A DNA stretch of 39,564 nucleotides, from contig CAYPKE010000003.1 of NCBI GenBank assembly GCA_964411235.1, positions 1 to 39,564 of the forward strand, given 5' to 3'. Numbering within the stretch: position 1 is the first letter of the stretch; every line of letters begins with the position of its first letter. Under the pieces are notes generated by a model that was given only the letters and a program-made list of their open reading frames with translations, had not been told where the DNA came from and ran no database searches. Below are positions 1 to 39,564 of the stretch, one piece after another. A program made the translations under genes and the position numbers. The DNA comes from an uncultured Syntrophales bacterium (GTDB lineage: Bacteria > Desulfobacterota > Syntrophia > Syntrophales > JAAYKM01).

Positions 1-1393
1 CAAGGATATGAACCGCGAGCTGGAAAGAATAACCGCTCTCAATGAGAGGGGAAAAAAGAATCTCGCTCTCGTGGGGGAAACCCTCAAGGAAGGAGAGATC
101 AAGCAGGAGTATGACCGCCTGATCGGCCTGTTCGTGCGTCAGAATCCGAATCTGGAGAAGCTGATTCAGCTTATCGCCGATGACCAAAAGGAGGAGGCCA
201 TGGCTTTTATGGAGGGAGAGGTGACCGTGGTGGAAAACCAGATCACCGCCTCGTTCCACAAGATTATCGATCTCGAGGTTCAGCAGGCCGAGGCCACCAT
301 GCAGGCGAGTGCCTCACGTGCCAATTCGGCGAGCTGGTTCGCCACGTTTTCCACGATCATGGCCTTTTTCATTGCTTTGGGTATCGGGATATTCATGAGC
401 CTCATCATTACACGCCCCATCGCCCGCGTGATCGAAGGGTTGAGTGACGGTGCAGAACAGGTGACCGCAGCCGCGTCTCAGGTGGCTACGTCGAGTCAGC
501 ATCTGGCGGACGGCAGTTCGAACCAGGCATCAGCCATTGAGGAAACCTCGTCCTCCCTGGAAGAAATGTCTTCCATGACCCGGCAGAACGCGGATAATGC
601 GCAACTGGCGAATGATATGATGATGAAGGAGGCGGCACCGAATTTCCAAATGATCGGGGAACGCATGACGACGATGGAAAAGGCCATGCAGGCTTCCGTG
701 GGCGCCAGCGAAGAAACAGCCAAAGTCATCAAGACCATCGATGAAATTGCCTTCCAGACCAACCTGCTGGCATTGAACGCTGCTGTGGAAGCGGCAAGAG
801 CCGGGGAGGCCGGCGCGGGATTCGCCGTTGTCGCCGACGAGGTCCGGAACCTGGCCATGAGGGCGACCGAGGCTGCCAAGAATACTCAGGATCTGATCAC
901 CAATTCGACGGGCCGGATTAAGGAAGCGACTTCCCTGTACGGGCAGGTATCCGAAGCGATGGGGAAAAACGGTGAAATCGCAAAGAAAGTGACGGAGCTG
1001 ATCGGGGAAATCGCGGCGGCGTCACGGGAACAGGCCCAGGGAATCGGTCAGGTCAACTCGGCGGTGGTGGAGATGGACAAGGTGGCGCAGCAGACGGCTG
1101 CATCCGCCGAAGAGTCGGCCAGTGCGGCTGAGGAACTGAACGCCCAGGCGGCGCAGATGAAGAGTTACGTCGGTGACCTCGTGTCCCTGATCAACGGCGC
1201 TGCCGATGGATACGGCGGGAAAGCGCTCCCTGCCGGACGCGTTACGAGTCAACGGGGTGCAGTGCTGAGCAAGAAACCGCCGATAGCGGCTCTGGTCAAG
1301 TATGATCGTAAGCAAGGCGCTTCCGTAAAGGAAAAAGTTGTCCGTCCGGATCAGATCATCCCCCTGGAAGAAGGTGATTTCAAGGACTTCTAA
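1..1393 (+). CDS. Methyl-accepting chemotaxis protein, 5'-truncated by the window (periplasmic helical domain, TM2, signalling domain, C-terminal pentapeptide)
   Basis: Hairpin-tip motif IAFQTNLLALNAAVEAARAGEAGAGFAVVADEVR; TM2 FSTIMAFFIALGIGIFMSLII; ends DFKDF. No TM1 is present, so the gene probably starts upstream. Confidence 0.95.
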   Translation, partial: KDMNRELERITALNERGKKNLALVGETLKEGEIKQEYDRLIGLFVRQNPNLEKLIQLIADDQKEEAMAFMEGEVTVVENQITASFHKIIDLEVQQAEATMQASASRANSASWFATFSTIMAFFIALGIGIFMSLIITRPIARVIEGLSDGAEQVTAAASQVATSSQHLADGSSNQASAIEETSSSLEEMSSMTRQNADNAQLANDMMMKEAAPNFQMIGERMTTMEKAMQASVGASEETAKVIKTIDEIAFQTNLLALNAAVEAARAGEAGAGFAVVADEVRNLAMRATEAAKNTQDLITNSTGRIKEATSLYGQVSEAMGKNGEIAKKVTELIGEIAAASREQAQGIGQVNSAVVEMDKVAQQTAASAEESASAAEELNAQAAQMKSYVGDLVSLINGAADGYGGKALPAGRVTSQRGAVLSKKPPIAALVKYDRKQGASVKEKVVRPDQIIPLEEGDFKDF

Positions 1394-3805: not shown

Positions 3806-5185
3806 TTATTCCCCCAGGTGAAAACGCTTTAACTTTTCCACCAATGTGGTGCGGTTCAGTCCGAGCAGCTTGGCCGCCTTGTTTTTTACGCCGCCGCTGA
3901 TTTCGAGGGCTTTCATCAAGAGGTCTTTTTCGAACTGGGTTACTGCTGCATTGTAATCGAAGCCCGCTTCCGGTAATTCAAGCGACGTTGTTCCGCATTC
4001 CCGGGCGGAGGTGACGTGAAATTTCGCGGGCAGATCTTCGACGTAAATTTCGTCGTGTGGTTGCATGACGACGAGCATTTCCATGAGATTCTGAAGCTCC
4101 CTGACATTGCCCGGCCAGGAATATTGCATCAGGCAAGACATGGCTTCCGGTGTGATTCTCGCGGACGCCTTGCCTTTTTTCGCACTGATTTCCTGCAGAA
4201 AATGGTTGGCGAGAATGGCGATGTCCGGACCCCGTTCACGCAATGGCGGCAGCCAGATCGGAATGACGTTGATCCGGTAGTACAGGTCTTCGCGAAACCG
4301 TTTTTCCTCGACCGCTTTTTCCAGGTTCTGGTGAGTGGCCGCGATGATACGGACATCGGCTTCGTAGGTTTTGACCCCTCCGATGCGTTCAAACTGTTTT
4401 TCCTGGATCGCCCGCAAAACCTTGACCTGAAGGGCCGGGCTCATATCGCCGATCTCGTCGAGAAACAGGGTCCCCCCCTGGGCAAGCTCGAAGCGTCCCG
4501 ATCGGCTGCGGATCGCCCCGGTGAAGGCGCCCTTTTCATGGCCGAAGAGTTCGCTCTCCAGGAGATCTTCAGGGATGGCCCCGCAATTGACCGGTACCAG
4601 CGGTTTGTTGCGACGTGAACTGTTGAAATGAATGGCTTTGGCGACCAATTCCTTTCCGGTGCCGCTTTCTCCGTAAATGAGAACGGTGCTGTCTGAATCG
4701 GCGACCTTCTCGATGGTGCCGAAAACCTTTTTCATGCAGTCGCTGTAACCCAAAAGTTTGCCCAGGTCATACTTCTCTTTCAGGTGATCCCGGAGATGAA
4801 CATTCTCTTCCCTGAGCTGGGCATAGGAGACTGCTCTCTGAACGGTTATTCTGACCAGGTCGTCTTTCAGGGGTTTGGAGATGAAGTCGAAAGCGCCCAG
4901 TTTCATGGCTTCCACGGCATTGCTGACCGTTCCGTATCCGGTGATGATGATCACGACATGGTCCGGCGACAGCTCCTTGGCGAAACGCAGCAGCTCCAGG
5001 CCGTCCACGTGGGGCATCTGCAGGTCCGTGATCGTAATGTCGTAGTGATCCTCCAGAAAGGCCTTCATCGCCTCACGACCGTCTTCGACGGCCCTGACGT
5101 CGTAGCCGCTGGAATGCATGAGTTCGAAGAGATTCTGTCTGCTGAGTTCGTTGTCTTCAACGATGAGGATTTTGGCTTTTTTCAT
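3806..5185 (-). CDS. Sigma54-dependent response regulator (REC-AAA+-HTH), FleQ/FlrA-like candidate flagellar master regulator
   Basis: [29 protein letters not shown]; HTH helix RTTLVEK as in FleQ/FlrA; receiver Asp intact (ITDLQMP). Confidence 0.9.
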
Positions 5186-6430: not shown

Positions 6431-6446
6431 TGGTTCGTATCTTGCT
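6431..6446 (+). promoter_or_regulatory. Sigma54 -24/-12 promoter for the cheR operon
   Basis: TGGTTCGTATCTTGCT (GG-N10-GC), about 60 bp upstream of cheR. Confidence 0.72.
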
Positions 6447-7336: not shown

Positions 7337-7819
7337 ATGGCAGATGTGATTGTTGGAATTTCGGATCTGAAGGTGAGCAATAAAGCCAGTGATGTTCTGG
7401 TTACGTATGCTCTCGGATCCTGCATAGGTTTGGCTATTTATGACCCCCTGGTTAAGGTGGGCGGGTTGCTTCACTTCATGCTTCCGGATTCGACTCTGGA
7501 TCCGAAAAAAGCGCAGGAGCAGCCGGGCATGTTCGCCGATACGGGCGTGCCGCTGCTGTTCAAGTCCTGCTACCGTTTGGGGGCGGAGAAGAAGCGGATC
7601 GTGGTCAAGGTAGCCGGGGGTGCCAGTATACTGGACGACACCAATTTTTTTCGTATCGGGCAAAAGAACATCACGGCCCTGAGAAAAATTTTCTGGAAAA
7701 ATAACGTGATGATCGAAGCGGAGGATACGGGGGCTAACTACAATCGAACGGTACGGCTTGATCTGTCGAACGGAAAGTTTCTTATTAAAAGTTCGATGGG
7801 GATGATGAAGGAATTGTAA
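7337..7819 (+). CDS. cheD: Chemoreceptor glutamine deamidase CheD (copy 1)
   Basis: LGSCIG, GGLLHFMLP, IGQKN, EDTG; catalytic Cys and His present. Confidence 0.93.
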   Translation: MADVIVGISDLKVSNKASDVLVTYALGSCIGLAIYDPLVKVGGLLHFMLPDSTLDPKKAQEQPGMFADTGVPLLFKSCYRLGAEKKRIVVKVAGGASILDDTNFFRIGQKNITALRKIFWKNNVMIEAEDTGANYNRTVRLDLSNGKFLIKSSMGMMKEL

Positions 7820-7820
7820 A

Positions 7821-8666
7821 ATGCTGGAGAAAATCATACGCTCGGTGCAGAGTATACCGGCTTTTCCCATGACCGTCCAGAAAGTGGCCGAACTGGTGAG
7901 CCGGGACGATTACGCCGTGGCGGACCTTGTCAACCTGATCAAGTACGATCAGGCGATAACGGCCAACATCCTCAAAATGAGCAATGCCGCCTATTTCGGT
8001 TCCCGGCATAAAATCAAATCCATCCAGGAAGCCGTCCTGTACTTGGGACAGCAGAACCTCCTGCGGGCGGTGCAGACCGCGGGGGTGTCCCGTTTTTATC
8101 GCAAGGTTTCCGGCGGCTACGTGACCCAGGCCAGGGAATTGTGGAAACATTCCATTGCCGTGGCCATGATGTCCCAGGTTCTGTCGCAGAAGGTTTTCCG
8201 TTGCGACGATTCGGTCCTTTACACGGCGGCACTGCTTCACGATATCGGCAAGGTGTTCCTGGGGGAATATGTTCAGGAATCGTTCAATAAGATCGAGAAT
8301 CTGGTGATGAACCGGGGCTATTCATTCCTGGAGGCGGAAAACGAGGTGCTCGGAATTGATCACGCCGTTTTGGGAGGGATGATTGCCGAACACTGGCATT
8401 TCCCGGCGGAAATCCGGGATGCCATTGCCTATCACCATCGTCCGGACCTTCTGGACAAGGAGGGGGACCATGTTCCCTGGTTGGTTTATCTCTCCGATCA
8501 GTTGTGCCTGATGATCGGTGTCGATGGGGGGGTTGACGGTCTGGCCTATAAAGGTCTGGAGGAGAGTTTGACGCGGTTCCACCTGCGCGTGCAGGATTTG
8601 GAACAGGGAATGGTCATGCTTCTTGAGTCGCTCCAGAGCGCCGAGGACGTGATCAATATCGTATAA
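7821..8666 (+). CDS. HDOD domain protein
   Basis: IPAFP, DQAITANILKMSNAAYFG, LWKHS, AALLHDIGK, W.FP..I..AIAYHH. Confidence 0.92.
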   Translation: MLEKIIRSVQSIPAFPMTVQKVAELVSRDDYAVADLVNLIKYDQAITANILKMSNAAYFGSRHKIKSIQEAVLYLGQQNLLRAVQTAGVSRFYRKVSGGYVTQARELWKHSIAVAMMSQVLSQKVFRCDDSVLYTAALLHDIGKVFLGEYVQESFNKIENLVMNRGYSFLEAENEVLGIDHAVLGGMIAEHWHFPAEIRDAIAYHHRPDLLDKEGDHVPWLVYLSDQLCLMIGVDGGVDGLAYKGLEESLTRFHLRVQDLEQGMVMLLESLQSAEDVINIV

Positions 8667-8685
8667 GACAAGTCGAGGGTGCATT

Positions 8686-9108
8686 ATGTCGTTTAATGTT
8701 CTGATTGTGGATGATTCAACCGCCATGCGTTCCGTAATACGAAAAGTGATCCAGTTGTCGGGTTTCCGGATGGACCACTGCTACGAAGCGGATAACGGCA
8801 ACCAGGCACTGGAAGTCTTGTCCGAAGCATGGGTCGATGTCATCCTTTCGGACATTCATATGCCGGAAATGGACGGTTTCGAACTGTTGAAGGAGGTTGG
8901 GCAGAACGAGGTCTTTCGCAATATCCCCGTCATCATGATTTCAACGGAGGGAAGTCAGGAGCGGGTGCAAGAAGCCTATGCCCTGGGGGCCAGGGGCTTT
9001 ATCAAGAAACCCTTCCTGCCGGAAGAATTGAAGCGCATGCTGCATGAAGTGATAGGAGTGGGAGATGAGGGAGAATATCAAGCAGACACTGATGAAGGCG
9101 ACTTTTGA
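8686..9108 (+). CDS. Single-domain response regulator (CheY-like) with acidic tail
   Basis: LIVDDS, ILSDIHMPEMDG, ISTE, KKPF. Confidence 0.9.
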   Translation: MSFNVLIVDDSTAMRSVIRKVIQLSGFRMDHCYEADNGNQALEVLSEAWVDVILSDIHMPEMDGFELLKEVGQNEVFRNIPVIMISTEGSQERVQEAYALGARGFIKKPFLPEELKRMLHEVIGVGDEGEYQADTDEGDF

Positions 9109-9523
9109 AGTCTTCGAGAAGATGTTTTTTCTGTTTCTCGAACCCGTGGAAAAGGTCGATATGCGCGATGCATCGGTTTCCTGCATCACATTCGGCGGTG
9201 CGGCAACGGGAAGGGTGTCTTTGACCATTTCGCCGGCCCTTGCGTCTATGATGGCGGAAAACATGCTCGGGTGTGAGCGATGCGATATCACGGATCGGAT
9301 GATTGAGGATTGTGCCAAGGAGGCGGCGAACATGGTGTGCGGAAATTTTCTGCGCAAAATGGACGAAAAGGAGGTTTTTCAGTTGCACCTGCCGATGTAT
9401 GCCGCGGCGGAGCAGGAAGACAGGGTGTGCGGCAATGTCCCGGCAGGCGCTGATGACGTGACCGTGTGCTTCGAGTCGGAGGGAGCGCACCTTCAGGTTC
9501 GCCTTTCCTGGATGGAAACGTAG
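9065..9523 (+). CDS. CheX/CheC-family phosphatase-like protein
   Basis: TFEVFEKMFF and EAANMVCGN (ExxN motif); GGAG RBS. Overlaps the upstream gene by 44 nt. Confidence 0.8.
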   Translation: MRENIKQTLMKATFEVFEKMFFLFLEPVEKVDMRDASVSCITFGGAATGRVSLTISPALASMMAENMLGCERCDITDRMIEDCAKEAANMVCGNFLRKMDEKEVFQLHLPMYAAAEQEDRVCGNVPAGADDVTVCFESEGAHLQVRLSWMET

Positions 9524-9543
9524 CGAGGGCCTTCGGTGACGCC

Positions 9544-11084
<1,541 letters not shown>

Positions 11085-13772: not shown

Positions 13773-14240
13773 ATGAATGTTAAATTTATCAACCCGTTTT
13801 TGGAGGGGACGACCAGCGTGCTTAATACGATGGCCTTCATCTCGCCCCGTCCGGGGAAACCGTATTTGAAGAAGGACAGCATGGCCGTCGGTGATATCTC
13901 CGGCATTATCGGTCTCACCGGCGCCGCCCGCGGATCCCTGGCGCTGAGTTTCAGCAAGGGCTGCATTCTGAAGATCGTATCGAATATGCTGGGAGAGGAA
14001 ATCGACGAAATCAACGGCGACATCAAGGATGCCGTAGGGGAACTGACGAACATGGTTTCCGGTGTGGCCAGAAAGAAGCTCGAGGCGGAGGGCCTCAACA
14101 TCACGGCGGCCATTCCCACCATTGTTTCGGGACCAAGTCACTCCATCGTCCACGTCTTGGGCGGTCCCAGTATCATCATTCCTTTCGAAATCGATGAAGG
14201 TCCTTTTGTGGTGGATATTTGCTTGAGCGACGGAACTTAG
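13773..14240 (+). CDS. cheX: CheY-P phosphatase CheX
   Basis: FINPF, DISGIIGLTG, DAVGELTNMVSG, PTIVSG. Confidence 0.93.
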   Translation: MNVKFINPFLEGTTSVLNTMAFISPRPGKPYLKKDSMAVGDISGIIGLTGAARGSLALSFSKGCILKIVSNMLGEEIDEINGDIKDAVGELTNMVSGVARKKLEAEGLNITAAIPTIVSGPSHSIVHVLGGPSIIIPFEIDEGPFVVDICLSDGT

Positions 14241-15148
14241 GGCGGACCTGGCCCGGGCTGAGGATCGGCGGCCGGCCCCTCCGCTGTCCGGGCTTTTGGC
14301 TGAATGAGAATGATACTGATCCTCCGGTTGCGGGGGTCCCGGGGGTTATCCTCCACAAAGAGTTCCTGGTCCGCGTAACCCACTACCCGGGCGATACGGG
14401 ACGGATCGATGCCGTTGTTTTCCAGTTCCCGGCGCGCCGCGGAAGATCGGGAGGTGGACAGTTCCCAGTTGGTAATTTGGCCGCCCCGGAAGGGTGCGGC
14501 ATCCGTGTGGCCTTCGATGGCCACCCGGTTGGGAATATCCCGGATATTGTCGGACACCAGCGCCAGGATCTGCCGGGCCCTGTCCGTTGGCACGGCGCTT
14601 CCCAGTGAAAACATGGGGCTTCCTTCCGTATCGACGATCTGAATCCGGACGCCTCCCTCTACCACATCGACAAAGATTTGATCCTTGACGAGTCTGAGCT
14701 TTTCCTCGATGGCGGCCTTGAGCTTTTTGACCAGGTCTTCCGATGTGATGCCGCCCTGTTGTTCCGTTACTTTGACGACGGTCACCCCCGTGGAGCCACG
14801 GACCTCTCCCCGGGAATCCTTTGCCGCCCCGGCCCCTTCCCGGCTTAGACCCTTGGCGGACATCTTGGCCCCCATGCCCTGCTTGTCCAGGACAGTGGCT
14901 GATTTGTCCAGGAAGGACTGGCCGGAACTGGTCATTTCTTTGAATACATTGAAATTCTTGAAATATTCGGAAAGCGCCAGGCGTTTTTCCGGCGAGACCA
15001 TGGTAATCAGCCACAGCAGCAGAAAAAAGGCCATCATGGCCGTCACGAAATCGGCATAGGCGACTTTCCAGGAACCGCTGTGGTGCGCCTCGGGAGTCCG
15101 GCGCTTTTTCCTTTTGATGATGATAACGGGTGAGGAACGATCGTCCAT
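14237..15148 (-). CDS. motB: Flagellar stator protein MotB (H+-type)
   Basis: WKVAYADFVTAMMAFFLLLWL with the essential Asp; OmpA-like EGHTD, NWELS..R, NRRISI. Confidence 0.96.
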   Translation of the reverse strand: MDDRSSPVIIIKRKKRRTPEAHHSGSWKVAYADFVTAMMAFFLLLWLITMVSPEKRLALSEYFKNFNVFKEMTSSGQSFLDKSATVLDKQGMGAKMSAKGLSREGAGAAKDSRGEVRGSTGVTVVKVTEQQGGITSEDLVKKLKAAIEEKLRLVKDQIFVDVVEGGVRIQIVDTEGSPMFSLGSAVPTDRARQILALVSDNIRDIPNRVAIEGHTDAAPFRGGQITNWELSTSRSSAARRELENNGIDPSRIARVVGYADQELFVEDNPRDPRNRRISIILIQPKARTAEGPAADPQPGPGPP

Positions 15149-16005
15149 TATTTTTTCGCCTGGCGGAACGCTTCTTCGACTTCAACGAAAGTCGGTCTGG
15201 CTTCGGTGGGGATAACGCGGCGCCCGAATTCCACGGCCACTTTGGGTGCGGCGCCGCCGATAAAGGAAAGGAGGGAGACCTTCAGGACGGTGAGGTACTG
15301 GAGATGCTCCGTTGCCGCATGTTCCATATTCCTTCCCATGGGTCCCACGAATCCGTAACAGAGAAGTACGCCGAGGAAAGTACCCACCAGGGCGGCCCCG
15401 ATATGTGCGCCCAGCACTTCAGGCGGTTCACCGATATGTCCCATGGTGATGACGACGCCCAGCACGGCGGCGACGATTCCGAGCCCCGGGAGGGCGTCGG
15501 CGACAAAGTTGACGCTTTTGGACGGATGGATCAGTTCATCCAGATGCGTATCCAGCTCGCTGTCGAGCAAGGCTTCCAACTCATGCGGGGCGATCGTCGT
15601 GGTCATGACTGTCCGGAGGGTGTCCGTAATCAGATTAATAGCGCGCTCGTTTTTGAGGATGCGGGGAAACTTGCTGAAAACGGGGCTTTCTTCGGGGCGG
15701 TCCACATCCGATTCGATGGAAACCAATCCCTGCTGTCTGATCTTATAGAAGATACCATTCAAGAGCAGAAGCGCCTCCATGTAATCCTCTTTGGAAAGAT
15801 GCTTTCCCGTAAAGACGCCTATTACGGAGGAAGACACTTTTTTGACAACCTTGAGCGGCGATGCGATCAAGAATCCGCCGATCGCGGCACCGACGATAAT
15901 GACTATCTCGGCCGGCTGCACCAGGACGGAGAGATTCCCTTGGGCCATGAGATAGCCGCCGACAACGGCGACGGTGACGACGACAAAACCGATAATGGCC
16001 ATCAT
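15148..16005 (-). CDS. motA: Flagellar stator protein MotA (E. coli/H+-type)
   Basis: QPAEIVII.GAA, LPGLGIVAAVLGVV, ALVGTFLG, AVEFGRR, RPTF.E.E. Confidence 0.96.
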   Translation of the reverse strand: MMAIIGFVVVTVAVVGGYLMAQGNLSVLVQPAEIVIIVGAAIGGFLIASPLKVVKKVSSSVIGVFTGKHLSKEDYMEALLLLNGIFYKIRQQGLVSIESDVDRPEESPVFSKFPRILKNERAINLITDTLRTVMTTTIAPHELEALLDSELDTHLDELIHPSKSVNFVADALPGLGIVAAVLGVVITMGHIGEPPEVLGAHIGAALVGTFLGVLLCYGFVGPMGRNMEHAATEHLQYLTVLKVSLLSFIGGAAPKVAVEFGRRVIPTEARPTFVEVEEAFRQAKK

Positions 16006-16562
16006 GGATAGTCTTTCTCCCCTCTCTTGGCCCGCAGGGCTTCCCGTTCCCTTTCAAAGACAAAGCGAACGATTTCATCGCGGACATGATCGTCCATGTC
16101 GAGAAATTTCAAACCGATCCGGTTCTGCTCCTGCTTCGCCGTACAGGACAGAACCTGCCCGTAGATCTGAACGGCCACCGGGGGGAGCGAAAAGAGAATC
16201 ATCTTGATTTCCAGAAGGCTTCCTTCAGGGATTGACGCTTCGGAGAGATAATCCATGCCGTTTCCGCTCAGCGTGACGGGCTTTGTCGGCAGGGCCTGAA
16301 AACCCTCCTGGTAAATGGCAAGCATGCGCATGATCGCGTCGAGTTTGGCGTTGATCGTCTTCAGCCAAATTGACAGATGGGCGTCGCCGACTTCGGGCAA
16401 GGTCGAAAGCTCGCTGTAAATGGGTTCCCCGTAGAGTTTTGCCCGGTATAATCCTTCTTCTTCCGGTGGGACGACCCGTACGCCGAAAGGGAGCAGTGTG
16501 GAAATTCTCGAATATTCCCTTTTATTTGTCGAGATTTCGGTAAGTCCTTTCAATTTCATCAT
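16002..16562 (-). CDS. PilZ domain protein
   Basis: N-terminal RxxxR (REYSR), TLSGNGM, IGLKF..MD...RDEIVRFVFERER. Stop overlaps the motA start. Confidence 0.85.
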   Translation of the reverse strand: MMKLKGLTEISTNKREYSRISTLLPFGVRVVPPEEEGLYRAKLYGEPIYSELSTLPEVGDAHLSIWLKTINAKLDAIMRMLAIYQEGFQALPTKPVTLSGNGMDYLSEASIPEGSLLEIKMILFSLPPVAVQIYGQVLSCTAKQEQNRIGLKFLDMDDHVRDEIVRFVFEREREALRAKRGEKDYP

Positions 16563-21130: not shown

Positions 21131-22543
21131 ATGACACATGATTGTAGCAGGCGTATTCTGATTGTCGATGACGATCCCTCCATGAGGCTTGCCCTCACGG
21201 AATCTCTGGAGGCGTGCGGCTACGCCGTGGAGGCGGCGGATAACGGGTCCGAGGCCCTGAGGAAATTCGAGCGTGATGCTTTCGGGGTGGTGGTGACGGA
21301 CATGAGAATGCCCCGGTTGGGAGGCATGGAGGTCCTCAAGGGCGTCAAAAAATTATCACCTCGGACGCCGGTGATTCTCATCACCGCTTACGGCACCGTC
21401 AGCACGGCCGTCGAAGCCATGAAGGAAGGGGCCTCGGAATTTATCATGAAACCCTTTTCCCTGGACGACCTGCAGGGGGTGGTGAAAAAGGTTCTCGCCT
21501 CAGGCCCTCCCGTCCAGGAAGCCGTAACGCCCAGTGAAGCCGACGTGGCAACCGAGACCGATATTCTAACCCGGTCCGACAAGATGAAAGCGCTGCTTGC
21601 GCTCATGCGGAACATCGCGAAAAGCCGGTCCTGCGTGCTGATCCAGGGGGAGAGCGGAACGGGCAAGGAACTGTTCGCCCGCTATATCTATCGGCACAGC
21701 GGGCGGGAAAATCACCCCTTCGTCGCCATCAACTGCGCCGCTATCCCGCATCACCTCCTGGAAAGCGAGATGTTCGGTTATGAAAAGGGCGCCTTTACCG
21801 GCGCGATCCAGAGAAAACCGGGCAAATTCGAGCTGGCCGATGGGGGGACCCTGCTGCTTGACGAAATCGGCGATATGGATGTTCAACTCCAGGCGAAACT
21901 GCTGCGCGTGCTCCAGGAATCGGAGGTCGACCGTCTGGGCGGGCGGGAGCCTGTCGCCGTCGATGTCCGGATCATTGCCACCACCAATGCCGACCTGAAA
22001 AAAGGCGTTGAGGAAAAGAAATTCCGGGAGGATCTTTATTTCCGCCTGAACGTGATCCCCATTCAGATCCCGCCCCTGAGGGACCGGAGGGTGGACGTGG
22101 CTCTCCTGAGCGAGCATTTTCTAGAAAAGTACAGCCGGCTGAGTGACAGGGCCAAACCGGCGATATCGCCGGCGGCGATGGCGATCCTGGAATCTTATTC
22201 CTGGCCGGGTAATGTCAGGGAATTGGAGCATGTCATGGAACGGTCGGTTCTTCTCTGCGACGAGGGGGTCATCCTGCCGGAACATCTTTATCTGGATGGC
22301 CCCGTCAGGAGTATGCCGGAACAGAAGGGTCCGGACAACGCCCCGGATCTGGTGCTTAGGGCGGGTCCGCGAGATCCCGTCACCTTGAAGGAGATGGAAA
22401 AGTCCATGATTTTCGAGGTCTTGAACAAAGTGAACGGCAACAGGACCCAGGCTTCCCGGATTCTCGGCATCAGTGTCCGGACCATGCGCAACAAACTTCA
22501 GGAATATGAAGCCGAGGGCGATGTCATCCCCTGCGATTCCTGA
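21131..22543 (+). CDS. FlrC/FleR-like sigma54-dependent response regulator
   Basis: REC (VTDMRMP), [28 protein letters not shown]; directly upstream of flgB. Confidence 0.9.
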   Translation: MTHDCSRRILIVDDDPSMRLALTESLEACGYAVEAADNGSEALRKFERDAFGVVVTDMRMPRLGGMEVLKGVKKLSPRTPVILITAYGTVSTAVEAMKEGASEFIMKPFSLDDLQGVVKKVLASGPPVQEAVTPSEADVATETDILTRSDKMKALLALMRNIAKSRSCVLIQGESGTGKELFARYIYRHSGRENHPFVAINCAAIPHHLLESEMFGYEKGAFTGAIQRKPGKFELADGGTLLLDEIGDMDVQLQAKLLRVLQESEVDRLGGREPVAVDVRIIATTNADLKKGVEEKKFREDLYFRLNVIPIQIPPLRDRRVDVALLSEHFLEKYSRLSDRAKPAISPAAMAILESYSWPGNVRELEHVMERSVLLCDEGVILPEHLYLDGPVRSMPEQKGPDNAPDLVLRAGPRDPVTLKEMEKSMIFEVLNKVNGNRTQASRILGISVRTMRNKLQEYEAEGDVIPCDS

Positions 22544-28393: not shown

Positions 28394-28834
28394 ATGTTCA
28401 CGTATAACCTGCAATCCATCCTCGATTTCCGGCAGAATACGGAAGAGAAGAAACTCACCGCGCTGGCGGCGACAGAACAGCATCTGCGGCAGGAGGAGCA
28501 TCGGCTGCAGGACATTCGTGATCAGCATAAAGCCCTGATTGAAGCATTAAAGGCCCTCAAGGACAAGCAGTGCGACAGCCGGGAGATTGCCCTATCGATG
28601 AACTTTGCCGAAGTGCTGCAGAAACAGGAGAAGCGTCAGACCGAGGTAGTTCGCAAGGCGGCGGCGCTTTGTGATGAAAAACGCAGGGAACTGCTGGAGG
28701 CCGTGAAGCAGAGGAAGATGATGGAGATTCACAAGGAGCACCGCTACCAGGATTACAAAGCCGAGCGGACTCTGTCCGAACGCCGGGAAACGGATGACCT
28801 GTCGATCCAGCGTTACATCAGGAGAGAATCATGA
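28394..28834 (+). CDS. fliJ: Export protein FliJ
   Basis: F.Y.LQ.ILDFR, coiled coil, E.RE.DD; positioned after fliI. Confidence 0.88.
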   Translation: MFTYNLQSILDFRQNTEEKKLTALAATEQHLRQEEHRLQDIRDQHKALIEALKALKDKQCDSREIALSMNFAEVLQKQEKRQTEVVRKAAALCDEKRRELLEAVKQRKMMEIHKEHRYQDYKAERTLSERRETDDLSIQRYIRRES

Positions 28835-29451
28835 AAACCAACAAAACGGCTGTGATCGGGGGGGTCCTCGCAATCCTTTTTCTGAAGCTTCTATTGGCGG
28901 GTGGTTTGTTTCAGGAACTATCCGGTGTCGATACCTCATCTCTCGCAATCAAAGAGGCCATGGCGGATACGGCCAAGGAGAATTCCGTGAACCTTCCGGT
29001 CAGGGATGTTTTGGAAGATCCTCTTGCCCGGGAACGAGCCCTTATGAAGGTTCTGCAACAGAAAAAGCAGGAACTGGACGACCAGGAAGCCCGGCTGCTG
29101 GCGGAAGAGCAAAGAATACAGGACTTGCGGCAGGAGATCGTGGCGAAGATCGATACGCTGCGTGCTTTGGAGGAAAGACTGGGGGTGGCTATCGAAGGGG
29201 AAAAGGACCAGGAAACCAAAAGATACAAGGATCTGGCCAGGGTTTATGACTCGGCGCCACCCGATAAGGTCGGTTCGATGCTCGAAAAGATGGATGTCAA
29301 GACCGCTGCCGGTGTCATGATGAATATGAAACGGGACCGGGCCGGTGCCGTTCTGGGATTTCTGAATCCCCAGCGAGCCGTCGAGATCACCCGCGAGATC
29401 ACCCGTGTCGCCGGTATGACGGCGCAACCGTTACAGCCGCCGCAGCCATAG
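28831..29451 (+). CDS. MotE/YlxF/FlbB-like flagellar protein
   Basis: N-terminal TM, coiled coil, LARVY...P.K....LEKMD...A......M....AG.VL....P..A; conserved position after fliJ. Confidence 0.8.
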   Translation: MKTNKTAVIGGVLAILFLKLLLAGGLFQELSGVDTSSLAIKEAMADTAKENSVNLPVRDVLEDPLARERALMKVLQQKKQELDDQEARLLAEEQRIQDLRQEIVAKIDTLRALEERLGVAIEGEKDQETKRYKDLARVYDSAPPDKVGSMLEKMDVKTAAGVMMNMKRDRAGAVLGFLNPQRAVEITREITRVAGMTAQPLQPPQP

Positions 29452-33742: not shown

Positions 33743-33771
33743 TCATTAATAAATAAACGTCGCAATAGGGG

Positions 33772-33787
33772 TGGCACAGCTCTTGCT
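33772..33787 (+). promoter_or_regulatory. Sigma54 promoter for fliK-flgD-flgE
   Basis: TGGCACAGCTCTTGCT, a perfect TGGCAC-N5-TTGC. Confidence 0.9.
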
Positions 33788-33821
33788 GATTCCTGAACAA
33801 AACGACACGAAAGGGAATCAG

Positions 33822-35639
33822 ATGATCAAAACGGCCCTGCAAAATACCGGCAAAATGAATGCCGTCTCCCTTTTTCCTGCTATGGGAAAAGAGTGGGGCC
33901 TGAAAAGCCCGTCAGGGTCTGGCGACAATGTCTCCGGTCAGGGGTCAACGCCTTTTTCCATCCTTTTTGCCCGTGTAATTCAGCAGGGTCTCGCAAAACA
34001 GGGCCTCCCGGGGCTCGCCGCCGGAATGGTTTCCCCGGCAGAGGGCGTTTCCGGTTTGATAAAAGCCGGGATTGGAGAAGGGGAGGCTCTTTTTCCGCTG
34101 TTGGCGGCGGGGGCTGATGAAGGCGATTCCGGTGTGCCGCTTCTGCCCGGGTCCATCAATGATCTGCTTTCCCTGTTTTCCGTCAATGGTGAAATGAGTG
34201 GAGAGCCGGGGCAGGAAATGGTCGCTCTGGAGGTGAATTTAGGCTTTTTGCTGGAGGCGTTTCAGGCGGAGAAACTTTCCGGAGAAGACCCCGCCCTTGG
34301 CGGGGATCCGGTTCTTTCGGAATTGAAGTCCTTTATCCGGACGATGGCACAGGCATTTGGAACACAGGACGTGCATTCAGGACCGCGGCAGGCGATTGCA
34401 TCGGATACGGGATCACCGGGTGCGATTGCAGCGGCGACGTCCGATGTGGCCGAAACGGCACGTCATCTGATCCGTCAGCTCCTGCTCATGCCGGATGGTC
34501 AGGCTTCTACAGGAACGGATTCGCCTCAGAAGGGATGGCTGGTTTTGCCGAAGGCCATGCTTGCGAATGTGCTTAATGAAGGAAGCCAGCAGATGCTGCC
34601 GGTATCTCATGGAACGGGGAATGATCAGCCTCTTCAGGCGATTGCCTCTCGGGGTGAGCCCCTCGGTGCAGGGCAGACGCTGCCCTTGATTGTCCTCGAC
34701 GAGAGCGGGAAGCAAATCCGTTTCCAGCTGGTTCGCCTCGAGGCCCAGGCGACAACGACGCCGGGAGCCGCCCTTGCCGCGGCGTTGGGGACACAAAAGG
34801 CCGACCGGACCGGGGGAGCGCGCTCCGCAGAGGTCCATGCCGCGGGGACGGAAGGAAAGGACTCCTCTCCTGTCAGTGCCTCCCGGGGGGAACCGTCGGT
34901 CAGGGGTGAGGGGGAAAGACCGGCACGCGAAGGATTGTTCAATCCGCTGCCTGGCGGAACTTTGGTCAAAGGATCGGCTCCGGAGGGGGCGGATTCCCGG
35001 CAGACCCCCTTGACAGGGGATGCGGACGGTGAAGGTGCGGAAAGAGCAGCCGTCAAGATCGCGGAGAACGGAAAAGAGGCGCTTCGCTTTCGCGAGGAGG
35101 CGGGAAAGGTCTTGCAGGCCGTGACAGGCAAAGAGGTGATTCAGGGCGCGTCGCCGGCCGGAGCGGCTGCCTCTCAGCTTGCCTCCGCGGCGGCGGCGAT
35201 GCCGAAAGGCGTTTTCATTCCCATGGACCGGCTGGCGCAGAAGGCCGCCGAAGCCCTGACGAACCGGGCGGGGAAAGTTCAGATGACGCTTCAGCCGCCG
35301 AGCCTGGGCACCATCACGATGGATGTCGTCGTTCAGAAAAACCGGGTGGAACTGGTTTTAACGGCCAATCGGGCCGATGTCCAGCAGATGCTCCAGACCC
35401 ACGCCGATCAGCTTCGCGTGGCCCTTACAAATCAGGGTTTTGAGATCGACCAGATGTCCGTTCTCCTGAAGCGGGAAGGGTTTGCTTTCCATTCCGGAGG
35501 CGGCAATTCCTGGCAGGAAGGCACGGCACAACATGCAGGCAAGGCAAACGGCACCGGAGGGGAGCCGGATGACACGCCGGTGGCCCCGGAGGTTTTTCGG
35601 CGGGATAATGACGGCGTGACCATCAGTATCTTTGCCTGA
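33822..35639 (+). CDS. fliK: Hook-length control protein FliK
   Basis: Low-complexity N-terminus; C-terminal T3S4-like MTLQPPSLGTI...LR.AL..QG; upstream of flgD. Start placed downstream of the promoter. Confidence 0.9.
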   Translation: MIKTALQNTGKMNAVSLFPAMGKEWGLKSPSGSGDNVSGQGSTPFSILFARVIQQGLAKQGLPGLAAGMVSPAEGVSGLIKAGIGEGEALFPLLAAGADEGDSGVPLLPGSINDLLSLFSVNGEMSGEPGQEMVALEVNLGFLLEAFQAEKLSGEDPALGGDPVLSELKSFIRTMAQAFGTQDVHSGPRQAIASDTGSPGAIAAATSDVAETARHLIRQLLLMPDGQASTGTDSPQKGWLVLPKAMLANVLNEGSQQMLPVSHGTGNDQPLQAIASRGEPLGAGQTLPLIVLDESGKQIRFQLVRLEAQATTTPGAALAAALGTQKADRTGGARSAEVHAAGTEGKDSSPVSASRGEPSVRGEGERPAREGLFNPLPGGTLVKGSAPEGADSRQTPLTGDADGEGAERAAVKIAENGKEALRFREEAGKVLQAVTGKEVIQGASPAGAAASQLASAAAAMPKGVFIPMDRLAQKAAEALTNRAGKVQMTLQPPSLGTITMDVVVQKNRVELVLTANRADVQQMLQTHADQLRVALTNQGFEIDQMSVLLKREGFAFHSGGGNSWQEGTAQHAGKANGTGGEPDDTPVAPEVFRRDNDGVTISIFA

Positions 35640-35666: not shown

Positions 35667-36317
35667 ATGGCGACCATCGACAACACGATAAACGGTGTGA
35701 CGACACAGCAGACACAGACAGCCAAGGCTACGACCAAGAGCATGGGGAAGGATGATTTCCTCAGAATGCTGGTCGCCCAATTGAAAAATCAGGATCCGCT
35801 GAAGCCGATGGACGGGACGGAATTCGCCGCACAGCTGGCTCAGTTTTCCAGCCTTGAACAGCTGACCAACATGAACTCGCAACTTCAGAATCTGGGGCTC
35901 TACCAGGCAACGATGAACAACGCCCAGGCGGTCAATCTCCTCGGTAAGGAGGTGACCGTAAATACGGGGAACACGGTTCAAATGGCGGGTGAAACGGCAA
36001 GCATCCATTACCGACTGCCGAAAGCCGCCGAACAGGTTACCATCCGCATTCTGGATGCATCGGGAAATGAGGTGGACCGGATCGAGGCGGGCAAACAGGG
36101 AACGGGTCTCCAGAACGTTACCTGGAGCAGGGGCAGCCATAGTCCGGGAATGTATTCGTATGAGGTGAATGCCTTCGATGCCGCCGGCGAGGCCGTTCCG
36201 GTGGAGAGGATGATGACGGGGAAGGTCACGGCGGTACAATACAAGGACAACGCCATTTATCTGACGGTAAACAATCAGGAGATCGGTTTCGGTGAGGTGG
36301 TTTCCGTCAAAAGTTAA
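35667..36317 (+). CDS. flgD: Hook capping protein FlgD
   Basis: [36 protein letters not shown]. Confidence 0.97.
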
Positions 36318-36369: not shown

Positions 36370-37914
36370 ATGTCGAGTGCATTGTGGATCGGAACAACGG
36401 GTTTGGCGGCAAGCTCAAAACAGATGGATGTGATTGGGAACAATCTGGCCAACTCCAATACCCTGGGGTTCAAGGCCGCCAACACCTATTTCGCCAGTAT
36501 GCTCAACCAGAGTCTTTCCGGCGGATCGAGCGGCACCATGCAAGTCGGCCAGGGCGTAACCATTTCGGAGGTGGCGACCCAGTTCAGCCAGGGTTCATTC
36601 GAAACGACAGGCAACGCGACCGATCTGGCCATCGACGGTGAAGGGTTCTTTATCGTCCAAGATGCGGAGGGGGCCCAATATTTCACCCGTGCCGGGGCAT
36701 TCCGGATCAACGCAGAGGGTTACCTGGTCGATGTCAACAATTACCGTGTTCAGGGATTCAATCTTTACGTTCCCGGGCAGGAAGATGAACAGGCCGACAT
36801 CAGCCTCCAGAATGTCCAGTCCGCTCCCCGGGCGACGACGGAGTTCGCTGTCGCCGCCAACCTGGATGACGCCGCCGCGGCGGGTGAAAAATTCAGCATC
36901 ACCCAGACCGTCTTCGATTCCAAAGGGCAGGCCCATAACCTGAGCGTCCAGTTCATGAGGACGGAGGGCAACGGCATGTGGGGATTTGAGGCGACCCTCG
37001 ACTCGACCAACATCAGTACGGGTCAGGCGTACAGCGGCGTGAAGTTTGATGAAAACGGCAATCTCTCGGCCATGTACACGGCCAGCCTGGCCAACGCCAC
37101 GGCAACCACGGCCGGTGACGGGACGATGACGGCCGCGGTCGACAAAGTCGGCCAGCTTTATAAGGCTACGGCGTCGGATATCGTCCTGACGCGAGGTTTG
37201 ACGGATCAGTCATGGACCGTCACCAGTCATGGAGGCTATGAAAATGCGGTGGTTGTTCTGGCCACAGCGGATGCCGTTTCCCTGGACCTGGACGGCATGG
37301 GCGGGGCCGATATAACCTTTAACCTGGTTGACACCTGGGCCGACGGGGATACGATCTCTTTCGGCATTGCCCAAACCGAAGCGCCCCTCACCGATGTTCT
37401 GCTGACCTTCGGTACCTTGAGCAACGGCGCCACCATCGGAGACCAGAGCAGCGGTACGAACCAGATCAACTGGAACCTGGTCGGTGCGGGATCCCAGAGA
37501 ATCACGGGCTATGCCAGTCCTTCCGTGATTAAGACCCTGTCCTCCGACGGGTACAGCTCCGGTGTTCTGAAGGCGCTTTCCGTGAGCAAGGATGGCGTGA
37601 TCAACGGTTTCTTTACCAACGGGCAGAGCGCGGAACTGGGACAGATCATGCTGGCCATGTTCCCCGATATCACCCAGCTGCAGAAATCCGGCAATTACTT
37701 CATCCAGACCGCGAATTCGGGCGAGGCGATCAAGAACCGGCCCGGTTCCGGAGGATTGGGGCAGATCATGTCGAATTCCCTGGAGATTTCAAACACCGAT
37801 GTGGCCAAGGAGTTCATCAACATGATCAGCGCCCAGCGGGCCTACCAGGCCAATGCCCGGGTTATCACGACGGCGGATCAGCTCCTGAGCGAGCTCATGA
37901 ATATCAAGCGATAG
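36370..37914 (+). CDS. flgE: Hook protein FlgE
   Basis: VIGNNLAN.NT.GFK, QGSFETTG..TDLAIDGEGFF, LE.SN.D...E...MI.AQRAYQAN. Confidence 0.96.
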   Translation: MSSALWIGTTGLAASSKQMDVIGNNLANSNTLGFKAANTYFASMLNQSLSGGSSGTMQVGQGVTISEVATQFSQGSFETTGNATDLAIDGEGFFIVQDAEGAQYFTRAGAFRINAEGYLVDVNNYRVQGFNLYVPGQEDEQADISLQNVQSAPRATTEFAVAANLDDAAAAGEKFSITQTVFDSKGQAHNLSVQFMRTEGNGMWGFEATLDSTNISTGQAYSGVKFDENGNLSAMYTASLANATATTAGDGTMTAAVDKVGQLYKATASDIVLTRGLTDQSWTVTSHGGYENAVVVLATADAVSLDLDGMGGADITFNLVDTWADGDTISFGIAQTEAPLTDVLLTFGTLSNGATIGDQSSGTNQINWNLVGAGSQRITGYASPSVIKTLSSDGYSSGVLKALSVSKDGVINGFFTNGQSAELGQIMLAMFPDITQLQKSGNYFIQTANSGEAIKNRPGSGGLGQIMSNSLEISNTDVAKEFINMISAQRAYQANARVITTADQLLSELMNIKR

Positions 37915-37926
37915 ATGCTTCCTGTG

Positions 37927-37966
37927 CAGCATTCCCCCGGCAACTCTTGAGGACGGGGGAATGCTG
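37927..37966 (+). terminator. Strong hairpin after flgE (probable terminator or stabiliser)
   Basis: CAGCATTCCCCCG-N14-CGGGGGAATGCTG, a perfect 13-bp stem without a clean U tract. Confidence 0.6.
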
Positions 37967-38154: not shown

Positions 38155-38170
38155 TGGTATGTTCCTTGCT
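38155..38170 (+). promoter_or_regulatory. Sigma54 promoter for the second stator operon
   Basis: TGGTATGTTCCTTGCT (GG-N10-GC). Confidence 0.78.
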
Positions 38171-38220
38171 AGAAATTGGCTGTAACGAACTTGGAGGGGT
38201 CTGCGGACCCGGGGGTCATT

Positions 38221-38982
38221 GTGGACATTGCGACGATTATTGGGATTATCGGCGGGTTTACCCTCGTCATCACAGCCATGGGCTGGGGGGGCGGCCTGTC
38301 CTGGTTTTTTGACCTGCCCTCGGCCATGATTGTCCTCGGGGGCACGTTCGGGGCGGTGCTGATCAACTATCCCCTTTCCACCGTTTTTAAGGTCATTCCT
38401 GCGGCGAAAAACATTTTCTTCAAACGGGAGACGGAGGTTCAGGATGTGATCAACCTGTTTGTCGAGATGTCCGGCATCACCCGTAGGGAGGGACTGCTGG
38501 CCCTGGAGCGGATGGAGGAGAAAATCAAGGATCCCTTTCTGTCGAAGGCCGTAGGACTGGTCCTGGACGGGGTCGACCCCACGGATGTGGAAATTATCCT
38601 GGAGACGGAAATCCAGTCGGTGGCCGAACGCCACCGGATCGGGGCGGAGATTTTCACGACCATGGGAAACTTTGCACCGGCCATGGGCCTGATGGGTACC
38701 CTGATCGGTCTGGTGAAAATGCTGATGCAGATGAGCGATCCCTCCATGATAGGGCCCTCCATGTCTCTGGCCCTGATCACCACGTTCTACGGTGTTATCC
38801 TGGCCAACCTCATTTTTCTGCCCATTGCGGGGAAACTGAAAACCCAGAGCAGTCATGAGCTCTTTATCAAATACTTGGTCATGAACGGGACGCTGGCCAT
38901 GCAGTCGGGAGAACACCCCCGGATGGTGAAGCAGAAGTTGCTGTCCTTTGTGGCGCCAAGAGAAAGGGGGGTGGCGTTTTGA
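38221..38982 (+). CDS. motA: Stator A subunit of the PomA/MotP type
   Basis: GTG start gives MDIATIIG; RREGLLALE, APAMGLMGTLIGLV.ML, IGPSM..ALITTFYG. Confidence 0.93.
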   Translation: MDIATIIGIIGGFTLVITAMGWGGGLSWFFDLPSAMIVLGGTFGAVLINYPLSTVFKVIPAAKNIFFKRETEVQDVINLFVEMSGITRREGLLALERMEEKIKDPFLSKAVGLVLDGVDPTDVEIILETEIQSVAERHRIGAEIFTTMGNFAPAMGLMGTLIGLVKMLMQMSDPSMIGPSMSLALITTFYGVILANLIFLPIAGKLKTQSSHELFIKYLVMNGTLAMQSGEHPRMVKQKLLSFVAPRERGVAF

Positions 38983-39564
38983 GACCGAAGATTCCGTGGC
39001 GCAGACAATTTCAGGATGTTCCCGTGGCCAACTGGAAGATCATTTACTGCTCTTTTGCCCTGATCCTCGTGGTCTTTTTTGCCATGATGGTGTCCTACTC
39101 CATTGTTTCCGGTAAAGGCATGACCTCGATCCGCAAGCATTTCAGCCGCGGGTCCTCCCTGCACGCGCCGGGGATTTCCATGCAGCCCCTGACGGGGATC
39201 GAATCGGAGCAGCCGGGGGATGCGCCCGCGATTGTCCTGCAGGACGCCAAAGCCCGGTTCGGCCTTGGCGAAATGGTGAGCGTGATGCTCGAATCCGGAG
39301 GGATCGATATTATCATGAAAGATCATGTCCTTTTCGCGGGAGGAGCGACGGAGATACAAAAGGGCATTCACCCCTACCTGAATGTCATCGGTGATGTGGC
39401 GGCCCGTAACGGTCTGCATGTCCAGGTCAAGGTCCGTTCGGCCGTGCCGCCGGGAACAGACATGGCGGATCGCGCAGCCTGGGAGCGCTCCGCCCGGCGG
39501 GCTGTGAATATGGTGCGGGATTTCCTGGCCGATGGGCGGCTAAGACCCGACCAGGGGAGTGCCG
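38979..39564 (+). CDS. Divergent MotB/PomB-like protein, 3'-truncated and absent from the ORF track
   Basis: TTG overlaps the motA stop and the frame is open to the window end. Manual translation gives NWKIIYCSFALILVVFFAMMVSYS, VLFAGG, AWERSARRAVNMV. Confidence 0.85.
   Translation, partial: MRPKIPWRRQFQDVPVANWKIIYCSFALILVVFFAMMVSYSIVSGKGMTSIRKHFSRGSSLHAPGISMQPLTGIESEQPGDAPAIVLQDAKARFGLGEMVSVMLESGGIDIIMKDHVLFAGGATEIQKGIHPYLNVIGDVAARNGLHVQVKVRSAVPPGTDMADRAAWERSARRAVNMVRDFLADGRLRPDQGSA

Follow-up and report, generated by a model that had tools for sequence, protein, structure and literature searches.

Current models of the rotary motors MotAB, PomAB, ExbBD, TolQR and Zorya have two identical axle helices, whose Asp residues alternate in ion uptake. 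MotY, an OmpA-like accessory of the Na+ motor, is not known to have a MotB-type transmembrane helix or a plug, nor is its gene known to lie between motA and motB. According to passages of a published account (PMC4525482), the Aquifex aeolicus operon motA/motB1/motB2 holds a single motA and a pair of motB genes; the transmembrane and N-terminal regions of MotB1 have 97% identity to those of MotB2, and rotation is supported by chimeras of either one. For Myxococcus AglR-AglQ-AglS, published accounts (PMC11761067, PMC9389320) present an AlphaFold model with an AglQ/AglS heterodimer inside an AglR pentamer, and a review among them states that both proteins carry a conserved Asp and describes the choice between a heterodimer and homodimers as not known. 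Here, we report a locus at the end of a contig of an uncultured Syntrophales bacterium (39,564 nucleotides; hereafter the window, meaning the whole stretch of DNA that was analyzed), in which the gene following motA encodes a MotB paralogue with Ser instead of the ion-binding Asp. We call this paralogue MotB'. A canonical motB follows it, and we give an even chance to the proposal that MotB' pairs with MotB inside the MotA pentamer, resulting in a stator with a single Asp.

The window comprises all of contig G000:C3, which carries a chemotaxis and flagellar gene cluster (Pfam scan), and motB' is hence cut at about residue 195 of about 221. As the original prediction from the bare sequence had claimed, the open reading frame (ORF) is coupled to motA: the TTG start of motB' overlaps the TGA stop of motA by 4 nucleotides (nt), and the frame is free of stops through 195 codons up to the contig end. 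In the loci of several relatives, the motB' and motB genes overlap too. For motA, the best NCBIfam models were PomA (255 bits) and MotP (246 bits), both under cut-off; a longer ORF from a TTG at 38176 is possible, and the orthologues begin at the equivalent of position 38221. Taken on its own, the target gives a weak MotB match (Pfam MotB_plug, E 0.0028, 17.6 bits vs. a cut-off of 24 bits), no OmpA match and no NCBIfam model at cut-off (best 31 bits vs. 283 required), and the protein atlas annotates the family as “OmpA/MotB family” only.

The letters of residues 19-34, in the transmembrane stretch, are those given in the original prediction, and the missing Asp was confirmed by two alignments. 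In a MAFFT alignment with 15 canonical MotBs, Ser25 (TCT) falls in the Asp column. Additionally, a profile of 25 family members matched the solved MotB of C. sporogenes (6ysf; E 1.3e-43, positions 1-227 on residues 1-245) and sets the Ser column on the Asp, which supports the alignment independently. With Ser25, MotB' lacks the ion-binding Asp required of a MotB/PomB B subunit, while the family profile covers MotB over its full length, with helix, plug region and OmpA-like domain. The canonical motB with a YAD helix, against which the original prediction had compared this gene, is also present, on the minus strand of the window (Table 1).

The continuation of the operon was found at the start of a second contig of the same assembly (G000:C62, locus L002). 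The operon thus reads flgE, a sigma54-like promoter, motA, motB', motB, fliL and fliM, the last named by position. The downstream motB with Asp that had been suggested is therefore present. Among orthologous loci, none of sufficient length lacks it: it was found in 15 of 16 order-level loci (the remaining one is cut by the contig end), in all 16 named-genome loci extending far enough and, for the phylum, in 11 of 12 loci of one round and 23 of 24 of another, the exceptions being cut by contig or locus ends.

Loss of the Asp is a property of the family. Among 15 order-level MotB' sequences, the Asp column holds Ser in 14 and Ala in one, so the predicted loss is shared by the orthologues. The 34 Asp-less members of the wider clade have Ser (25), Ala (8) or Gly (1) at this position, and all 42 downstream MotBs have Asp. 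A profile search of 1.84 billion representatives yielded 80,694 MotB/OmpA-like matches at E ≤0.001; in a broader alignment of 24 close homologues and the best 150 of these matches, with one sequence shared, the column reads D 93, S 60, A 6, G 4, P 1 and N 1, and among the aligned stretches of the 150 best representative clusters 51 are non-Asp. As Ser, Ala and Gly are all accepted, selection seems to favor a residue that is small and neutral here, and not one that provides a new ion ligand. Further, the MotB' helix lacks the Thr residues at +3 and +7 after the Asp, with Leu/Met/Ile and Ala/Val in their places, and it retains the I-L..F-F...S pattern of the MotB helix. The residue adjoining the Ser position is Cys, Thr, Ala or Ser across the clade, and within the order the triplet Tyr-Cys-Ser is conserved. 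That triplet, together with the PomA/MotP-like MotA, would suit a stator with an unusual coupling ion or with a binding site replacing the Asp carboxylate, one of the options raised originally. Such a stator fits poorly with the residues found at the position, with a variable neighbor, with hydrophobic residues in place of the two Thr of the partner and with a canonical Asp-bearing MotB that is always co-encoded, and we regard it as highly improbable.

Of the seven further genomes from the genus, six contain orthologues with 61-67% identity and 221-224 amino acids; the search of the remaining one matched just the downstream MotB, and the contig there ends early. More distant relatives (23-46% identity in best local segments) were found in nine genomes of other families of the order, giving a total of 16 of the 41 genomes searched, source genome included. 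Database names place these relatives in the Syntrophales and Syntrophaceae, phylum Thermodesulfobacteriota. Within the genus, the ratio of nonsynonymous to synonymous substitution rates (dN/dS, Nei-Gojobori) was 0.11-0.29 for MotB' (15 pairs), compared to 0.12-0.22 for the partner MotB and 0.03-0.055 for MotA; these ratios are rough, as dS (0.5-1.9) is partly saturated. A 326-nt contig from the RNA-library run X16 covers 38973-39298 with the Ser codon unchanged and six differences, five of them at third codon positions; the support for expression is this one contig, from a metatranscriptome library possibly containing DNA. All or part of 38200-39564 was present in 20 public runs from 14 studies, mostly sludge, wastewater, biogas-fermenter and anaerobic-digester metagenomes. 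MotB' is a common family among the Thermodesulfobacteriota of anaerobic digesters and sludge.

The last bases of the window (39487-39564) are unreliable. The first 132 bases of contig C62 match window positions 39433-39564 at 92% identity, with about 10 differing sites. Six informative sites have T or A in C62, as in the same-genus orthologues, and G in the window, while at two sites the window has the letter of the orthologues. A contig of run X2 (151 nt, depth 2), the sole cover of the window end among four public runs, has the C62 letters; runs X1 and X3 gave no contig over 39442-39564 and are not evidence either way. The differences are mostly G in the window vs. T in C62. The break between the two contigs probably results from low-quality or strain-variant reads. 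The unreliable end leaves Ser25 and KVRSA untouched, and it makes the exact letters of the motif WERSARRA doubtful. The likely miscalls in these roughly 80 bases could be taken as a sign that motB' as a whole is an assembly or sequencing artefact, and the long stem branch of the genus (see below) together with its loss of GHTD as signs of a decaying duplicate. The same gene with the same Ser is present in independent assemblies, the frame contains no stops, dN/dS points to constraint and the clade spans the phylum. An origin of the Asp loss by decay or sequencing error, which the original prediction had asked to be checked, is therefore the least probable of the explanations we considered, and we give it almost no weight.

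Of 301 genomes sampled from the phylum, at least 39 have an Asp-less first gene in the order motA-motB'-motB(-fliL), namely 3 Syntrophales genomes plus 12 and 24 from two rounds of locus reading. Desulfovibrio vulgaris may have this gene order too. The survey is based on direct reading of the sequence at 70 candidate loci; apart from the Asp-Asp tandems described below, the other loci examined have a single motB. Because a 52-residue N-terminal profile did not separate the two proteins by score alone (MotB' at least 46 bits, MotB 27-35 bits, many matches between), the residue was read directly in 40 fetched regions. In a tree, all 27 MotB' sequences fell into one clade (support 92), and in a larger tree 34 Asp-less sequences and one Asp-bearing first gene did so (support 91), with two changes needed for the Asp state; both supports come from quick searches and lie under the starred level. 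The inner branching of the MotB' clade mirrors that of the partner MotB clade, and the target genus sits on a long stem branch (1.42-1.47 vs. 0.47-0.69 for the partner). Judged by these sequence comparisons, we conclude that the ORF is an old, conserved MotB paralogue under purifying selection.

At least 11 of the 301 genomes (L082, L086, L087, L090, L095, L098, L099, L104, L109, L110 and L043) have a tandem of two Asp-encoding motB genes behind motA, and the first of the two often has Tyr-Cys-Asp in place of the Tyr-Cys-Ser of MotB'. A clade of their own (support 99*) is formed by nine other first genes of the Asp-Asp kind; its placement relative to the MotB' clade is not settled by the tree. 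The pair of motB' and motB may have descended from such tandems, or the tandems may stem from a duplication of their own.

In OmpA-like domains, the Asp of the GHTD-type motif and a conserved Arg bind peptidoglycan. The original prediction had read KVRSA in place of EGHTD, and the MAFFT alignment puts KVRSA in register with the EGHAD/EGHTD of canonical MotBs. Of the residues expected for peptidoglycan binding (PF00691), the motif Asp is thus missing in this protein and R174 is retained. The prediction had further stated that WERSARRA is kept. This holds for W168, R174 and A175, which are invariant in the MotB' family alignments, and the Ser of the motif is at a conserved position as well; the letters between them fall in the unreliable contig end. 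The GHTD loss had been presented as a feature alongside the Asp loss, which is not borne out: EGHTD or a close variant is retained in 7 of 15 order-level MotB', and 13 of 13 divergent Asp-less representatives retain EGH(T/S)D...NWELS. The motif has been lost in this genus, where its five residues vary among six orthologues, and in two other order-level lineages (L014 and L015). Going by the motif in these alignments, its loss is lineage-specific and not a family trait. In the two Syntrophales loci L014 (1465-2888) and L015 (1483-2872), both MotB' and the Asp-bearing partner lack EGHTD, and the Pfam OmpA match of these B proteins is absent or weak; the whole stator would there be without the usual wall-binding residues.

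Since the target is incomplete, the structure was modeled on a complete same-genus orthologue (223 amino acids; predicted local distance difference test, pLDDT, 75.9). The model has a confident helix at residues 18-40 (block-mean pLDDT 92-95) and an OmpA-like alpha/beta fold in the periplasmic domain. Among known structures, this domain fits best to 3khn, 9ljl, 2zvz and 3wpw (E 7.6e-11 to 1.9e-8), which are periplasmic domains from a MotB-like protein of Desulfovibrio, MotS, MotB and PomB. A plug-like helix at 46-58 was modeled at pLDDT <50, and the MotB_plug match of the target is under cut-off; MotB' members in other lineages clear it (27.7-42.8 bits vs. 24). Comparison of the 34 Asp-less MotB' with 42 partner MotBs gave mean pairwise identities of 0.45 vs. 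0.69 in the transmembrane helix, 0.18 vs. 0.21 in the plug-like segment and 0.29 vs. 0.31 in the OmpA-like core. The helix is thereby the most conserved region of MotB', which argues against a plain membrane anchor.

A co-fold of a same-genus MotB' with MotB (two chains, MotA not included) reached an interaction prediction score (ipSAE) of 0.82, while the highest of three controls was at 0.00; of the solved complexes 58 of 80 come up to the mark applied, and of the mismatched pairs 2 of 110. The three runs had at least 93% of their contacts in common, with a partner pLDDT of at least 78. The interface comprises both transmembrane helices as well as a helix and a strand of the OmpA-like domain, and W168 is among the lowest-error contacts with MotB. 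As the co-fold resembles solved MotB homodimers, its pass may reflect that likeness, and heterodimer and homodimer are alike to it. The best-supported contacts are those around W168, in the helix and strand of the OmpA-like domain, which would also be expected if MotB' stood outside the MotA channel as a membrane-anchored periplasmic accessory that binds to the periplasmic domain of MotB or to the outer face of MotA and places, anchors or stabilizes the stator, in the manner of MotY, MotC, MotE or FliL. OmpA-like stator accessories do exist, MotY appears in the profile matches at about 1e-7, and fliL is next in the operon. For a simple anchor, a transmembrane helix conserved above the OmpA-like core (0.45 vs. 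0.29) and retaining the I-L..F-F...S pattern is unexpected, and MotB' is a full-length MotB homologue including the plug region, translationally coupled to motA. We therefore consider an accessory role improbable, less so than an unusual ion.

MotB' could also form non-conducting complexes of its own (A5:B'2, five MotA with two MotB') that dock at the rotor next to working A5:B2 units and serve there as brake, clutch, placeholder or static scaffold. Without the Asp and without the Thr on the ion path, A5:B'2 could not conduct ions; cell-wall anchoring would be possible for the majority of members, which retain EGHTD, and in other lineages the plug motif is above the Pfam cut-off. The PilZ-motA-motB operon elsewhere in the window would make motor braking a theme in this organism. 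On the other hand, constitutive co-translation with working subunits would be odd for a regulator, and domain scans of MotB' found no regulatory domain. The tight co-divergence of MotB' and MotB is what is expected of direct partners, and a static anchor is at odds with the loss of the wall-binding motif in this genus. Further, in three of five genomes tested (94-99% complete), the tandem pair provides the only MotB_plug matches, which places MotB' within the only stator locus detected there. Going by this family model, those three genomes appear to have no flagellar stator besides the motA-motB'-motB trio; PF01618 could not be used for stator counts, as TolQ and ExbB match it too. We regard separate MotB' complexes as unlikely, though somewhat less so than the accessory role.

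The pairing of MotB' with MotB, raised originally as a B/B' heterodimer, is the best supported of the options and is unproven; the co-fold passed its controls, and we see the case as evenly balanced. We propose that one MotB' and one MotB would form a two-helix axle within the MotA pentamer (A5:B':B), with one ion-binding Asp in place of two. The small neutral residue of MotB', here Ser25, would act like a permanently neutral Asp. In this genus, where MotB' lacks GHTD, wall anchoring would be left to MotB alone. With somewhat less confidence than for the pairing itself, we suggest that 5:1:1 stators of this kind (MotA5-MotB'-MotB), with a single ion-binding Asp in the axle, could be widespread in nature.

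Several points weigh against this proposal. Current 5:2 models use both Asp residues in turn, and substitutions of Asp32 in E. coli MotB are dominant negative, so that a mixed dimer might stall and not turn. The data presented here would also suit a mixture of A5:B'2 and A5:B2 in place of A5:B':B. The review literature, in the excerpts cited (PMC9389320 / PMC11761067), names the Asp as the proton site. To these are added the limits given above for the dN/dS ratios, the clade supports, the plug-like helix, the RNA-library contig and the co-fold.

The original prediction had placed motA behind a sigma54 promoter. A -24/-12-like element is indeed present and conserved: of 19 tandem loci, 13 have TGG-N9-TGC at 25-108 nt upstream of motA, and of five single motAB loci none does. 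The pattern is not enriched in the window (20 matches vs. 16.5 expected), and the function of the element as a promoter is putative. Two sigma54 activator genes are encoded in the window (3806-5185, minus strand, and 21131-22543, plus strand). On the plus strand, TGG-N9-TTGC was found at 6431, 16971, 22572, 33772 and 38155, upstream of cheR, a TPR/SPOR gene, flgB, fliK and motA, respectively. At 33772, the element fits the consensus perfectly and runs over the listed fliK GTG; the actual start of fliK may accordingly be further downstream. A perfect 12-bp inverted repeat with a 16-nt loop (37927-37966) directly follows the flgE stop and has no T run behind it; this hairpin may be a transcript end or a stabilizer between flgE and the motA promoter.

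Additionally, the PilZ gene beside the second, E. coli-type motAB suggests control of this stator by cyclic di-GMP. An ORF 3' of fliJ (28831-29451) has weak FliG_M and MgtE_N-like matches only (E about 1e-4). The chemotaxis cluster (1480-2340 and 7337-10053) includes two CheD, two CheX and two HDOD-domain genes.

Table 1. Coordinates of the motB' locus, its continuation on the second contig and further stator and flagellar features of the window. Positions refer to the window unless a locus is named.
Feature	Position	Strand	Remark or evidence
PilZ-domain protein	16002-16562	-	second, E. coli-type stator operon
motA of second stator operon	15148-16005	-	TIGR03818 378 bits, over cut-off
motB of second stator operon, canonical Asp	14237-15148	-	
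fliK	33771-35639		flagellar part of window
flgD	35667-36317		flagellar part of window
flgE	36370-37914		flagellar part of window
sigma54-type -24/-12-like element (TGG-N9-TTGC)	38155-38170	+	51 nt upstream of motA GTG; two mismatches to consensus
motA, PomA/MotP-like A subunit, 253 amino acids from GTG	38221-38982	+	Pfam MotA_ExbB 7.4e-30
motB' (Asp-less MotB paralogue), residues 1-195 of about 221	38979-39564 (codons to 39563)	+	open frame, 195 amino acids
Transmembrane helix, residues 19-41, best-conserved part of MotB'	39033-39101	+	
Ser25 codon TCT, at ion-binding Asp position of MotB/PomB	39051-39053	+	sequence and alignments
KVRSA at position of EGHTD peptidoglycan-binding motif, residues 151-155	39429-39443	+	MAFFT alignment
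W-x-x-S-x-x-R-A helix motif of OmpA-like domain (W168, R174, A175)	39480-39503	+	alignment
Doubtful contig-end letters, mostly G where other sources read T/A	39487-39564		C62 overlap, orthologues, run contig
Tail of motB' ORF (full protein about 221 amino acids)	L002 (G000:C62) 3-212		ORF list
Canonical motB with Asp and EGHAD	L002 226-936		MotB_plug 1.4e-15, OmpA 4.3e-18
fliL	L002 950-1450		Pfam FliL
Further ORF, taken as fliM by position alone	L002 from 1497		gene order

Literature searches returned no description of an Asp-less MotB paralogue or of a three-gene motA-motB'-motB stator. A 2025 survey of stators in mBio (PMC12505986) equated the B subunit with the gene that comes after motA; its main text has no mention of aspartate, D32, a heterodimer or “two MotB,” and its supplements may list the B subunits used. 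In the genomes with the trio, the gene after motA is MotB', which matters for annotation and for evolutionary studies. In the MotB' clade, nature further provides an experiment on the need for both sites and on how a half-site affects torque, speed and ion cost. If the proposal is correct, one ion site is enough to turn a 5:2 rotary motor, and each revolution would perhaps cost half as many ions. This would be relevant to syntrophs living near the energetic limit, and in some genomes the trio would be the only flagellar stator.

Compared to the B subunits of 5:2 stators (MotB, PomB and MotS), MotB' has the same single transmembrane helix and OmpA-like domain, with a putative plug-like segment between them and homology over the full length, and its gene directly follows motA in a flagellar operon, translationally coupled and in conserved order. 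It differs by the absence of the helix Asp and the two following Thr, by the canonical B gene that is always next and, in this genus, by the loss of GHTD. The locus shares with the Aquifex operon a single motA and a pair of motB genes; however, the first copy here lacks the Asp and the two helices are strongly different, in contrast to the near-identical helices of MotB1 and MotB2. AglRQS likewise has two different B-type genes beside one A-type gene, and the architecture modeled for it is the one we propose for MotB' and MotB, although AglQ and AglS are TolR-like and non-flagellar. With MotY, MotB' has in common an OmpA-like domain linked to the stator and weak profile matches, but MotB' aligns to MotB over its whole length. 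Finally, the neutral residue at the Asp position resembles the E. coli Asp32 mutants and C. jejuni MotB D22N, which in excerpts of the review literature is used as a mimic of the protonated state (PMC11761067 / PMC9389320). Those are laboratory loss-of-function mutants forming homodimers, whereas MotB' is natural, selected and co-encoded with an intact partner.

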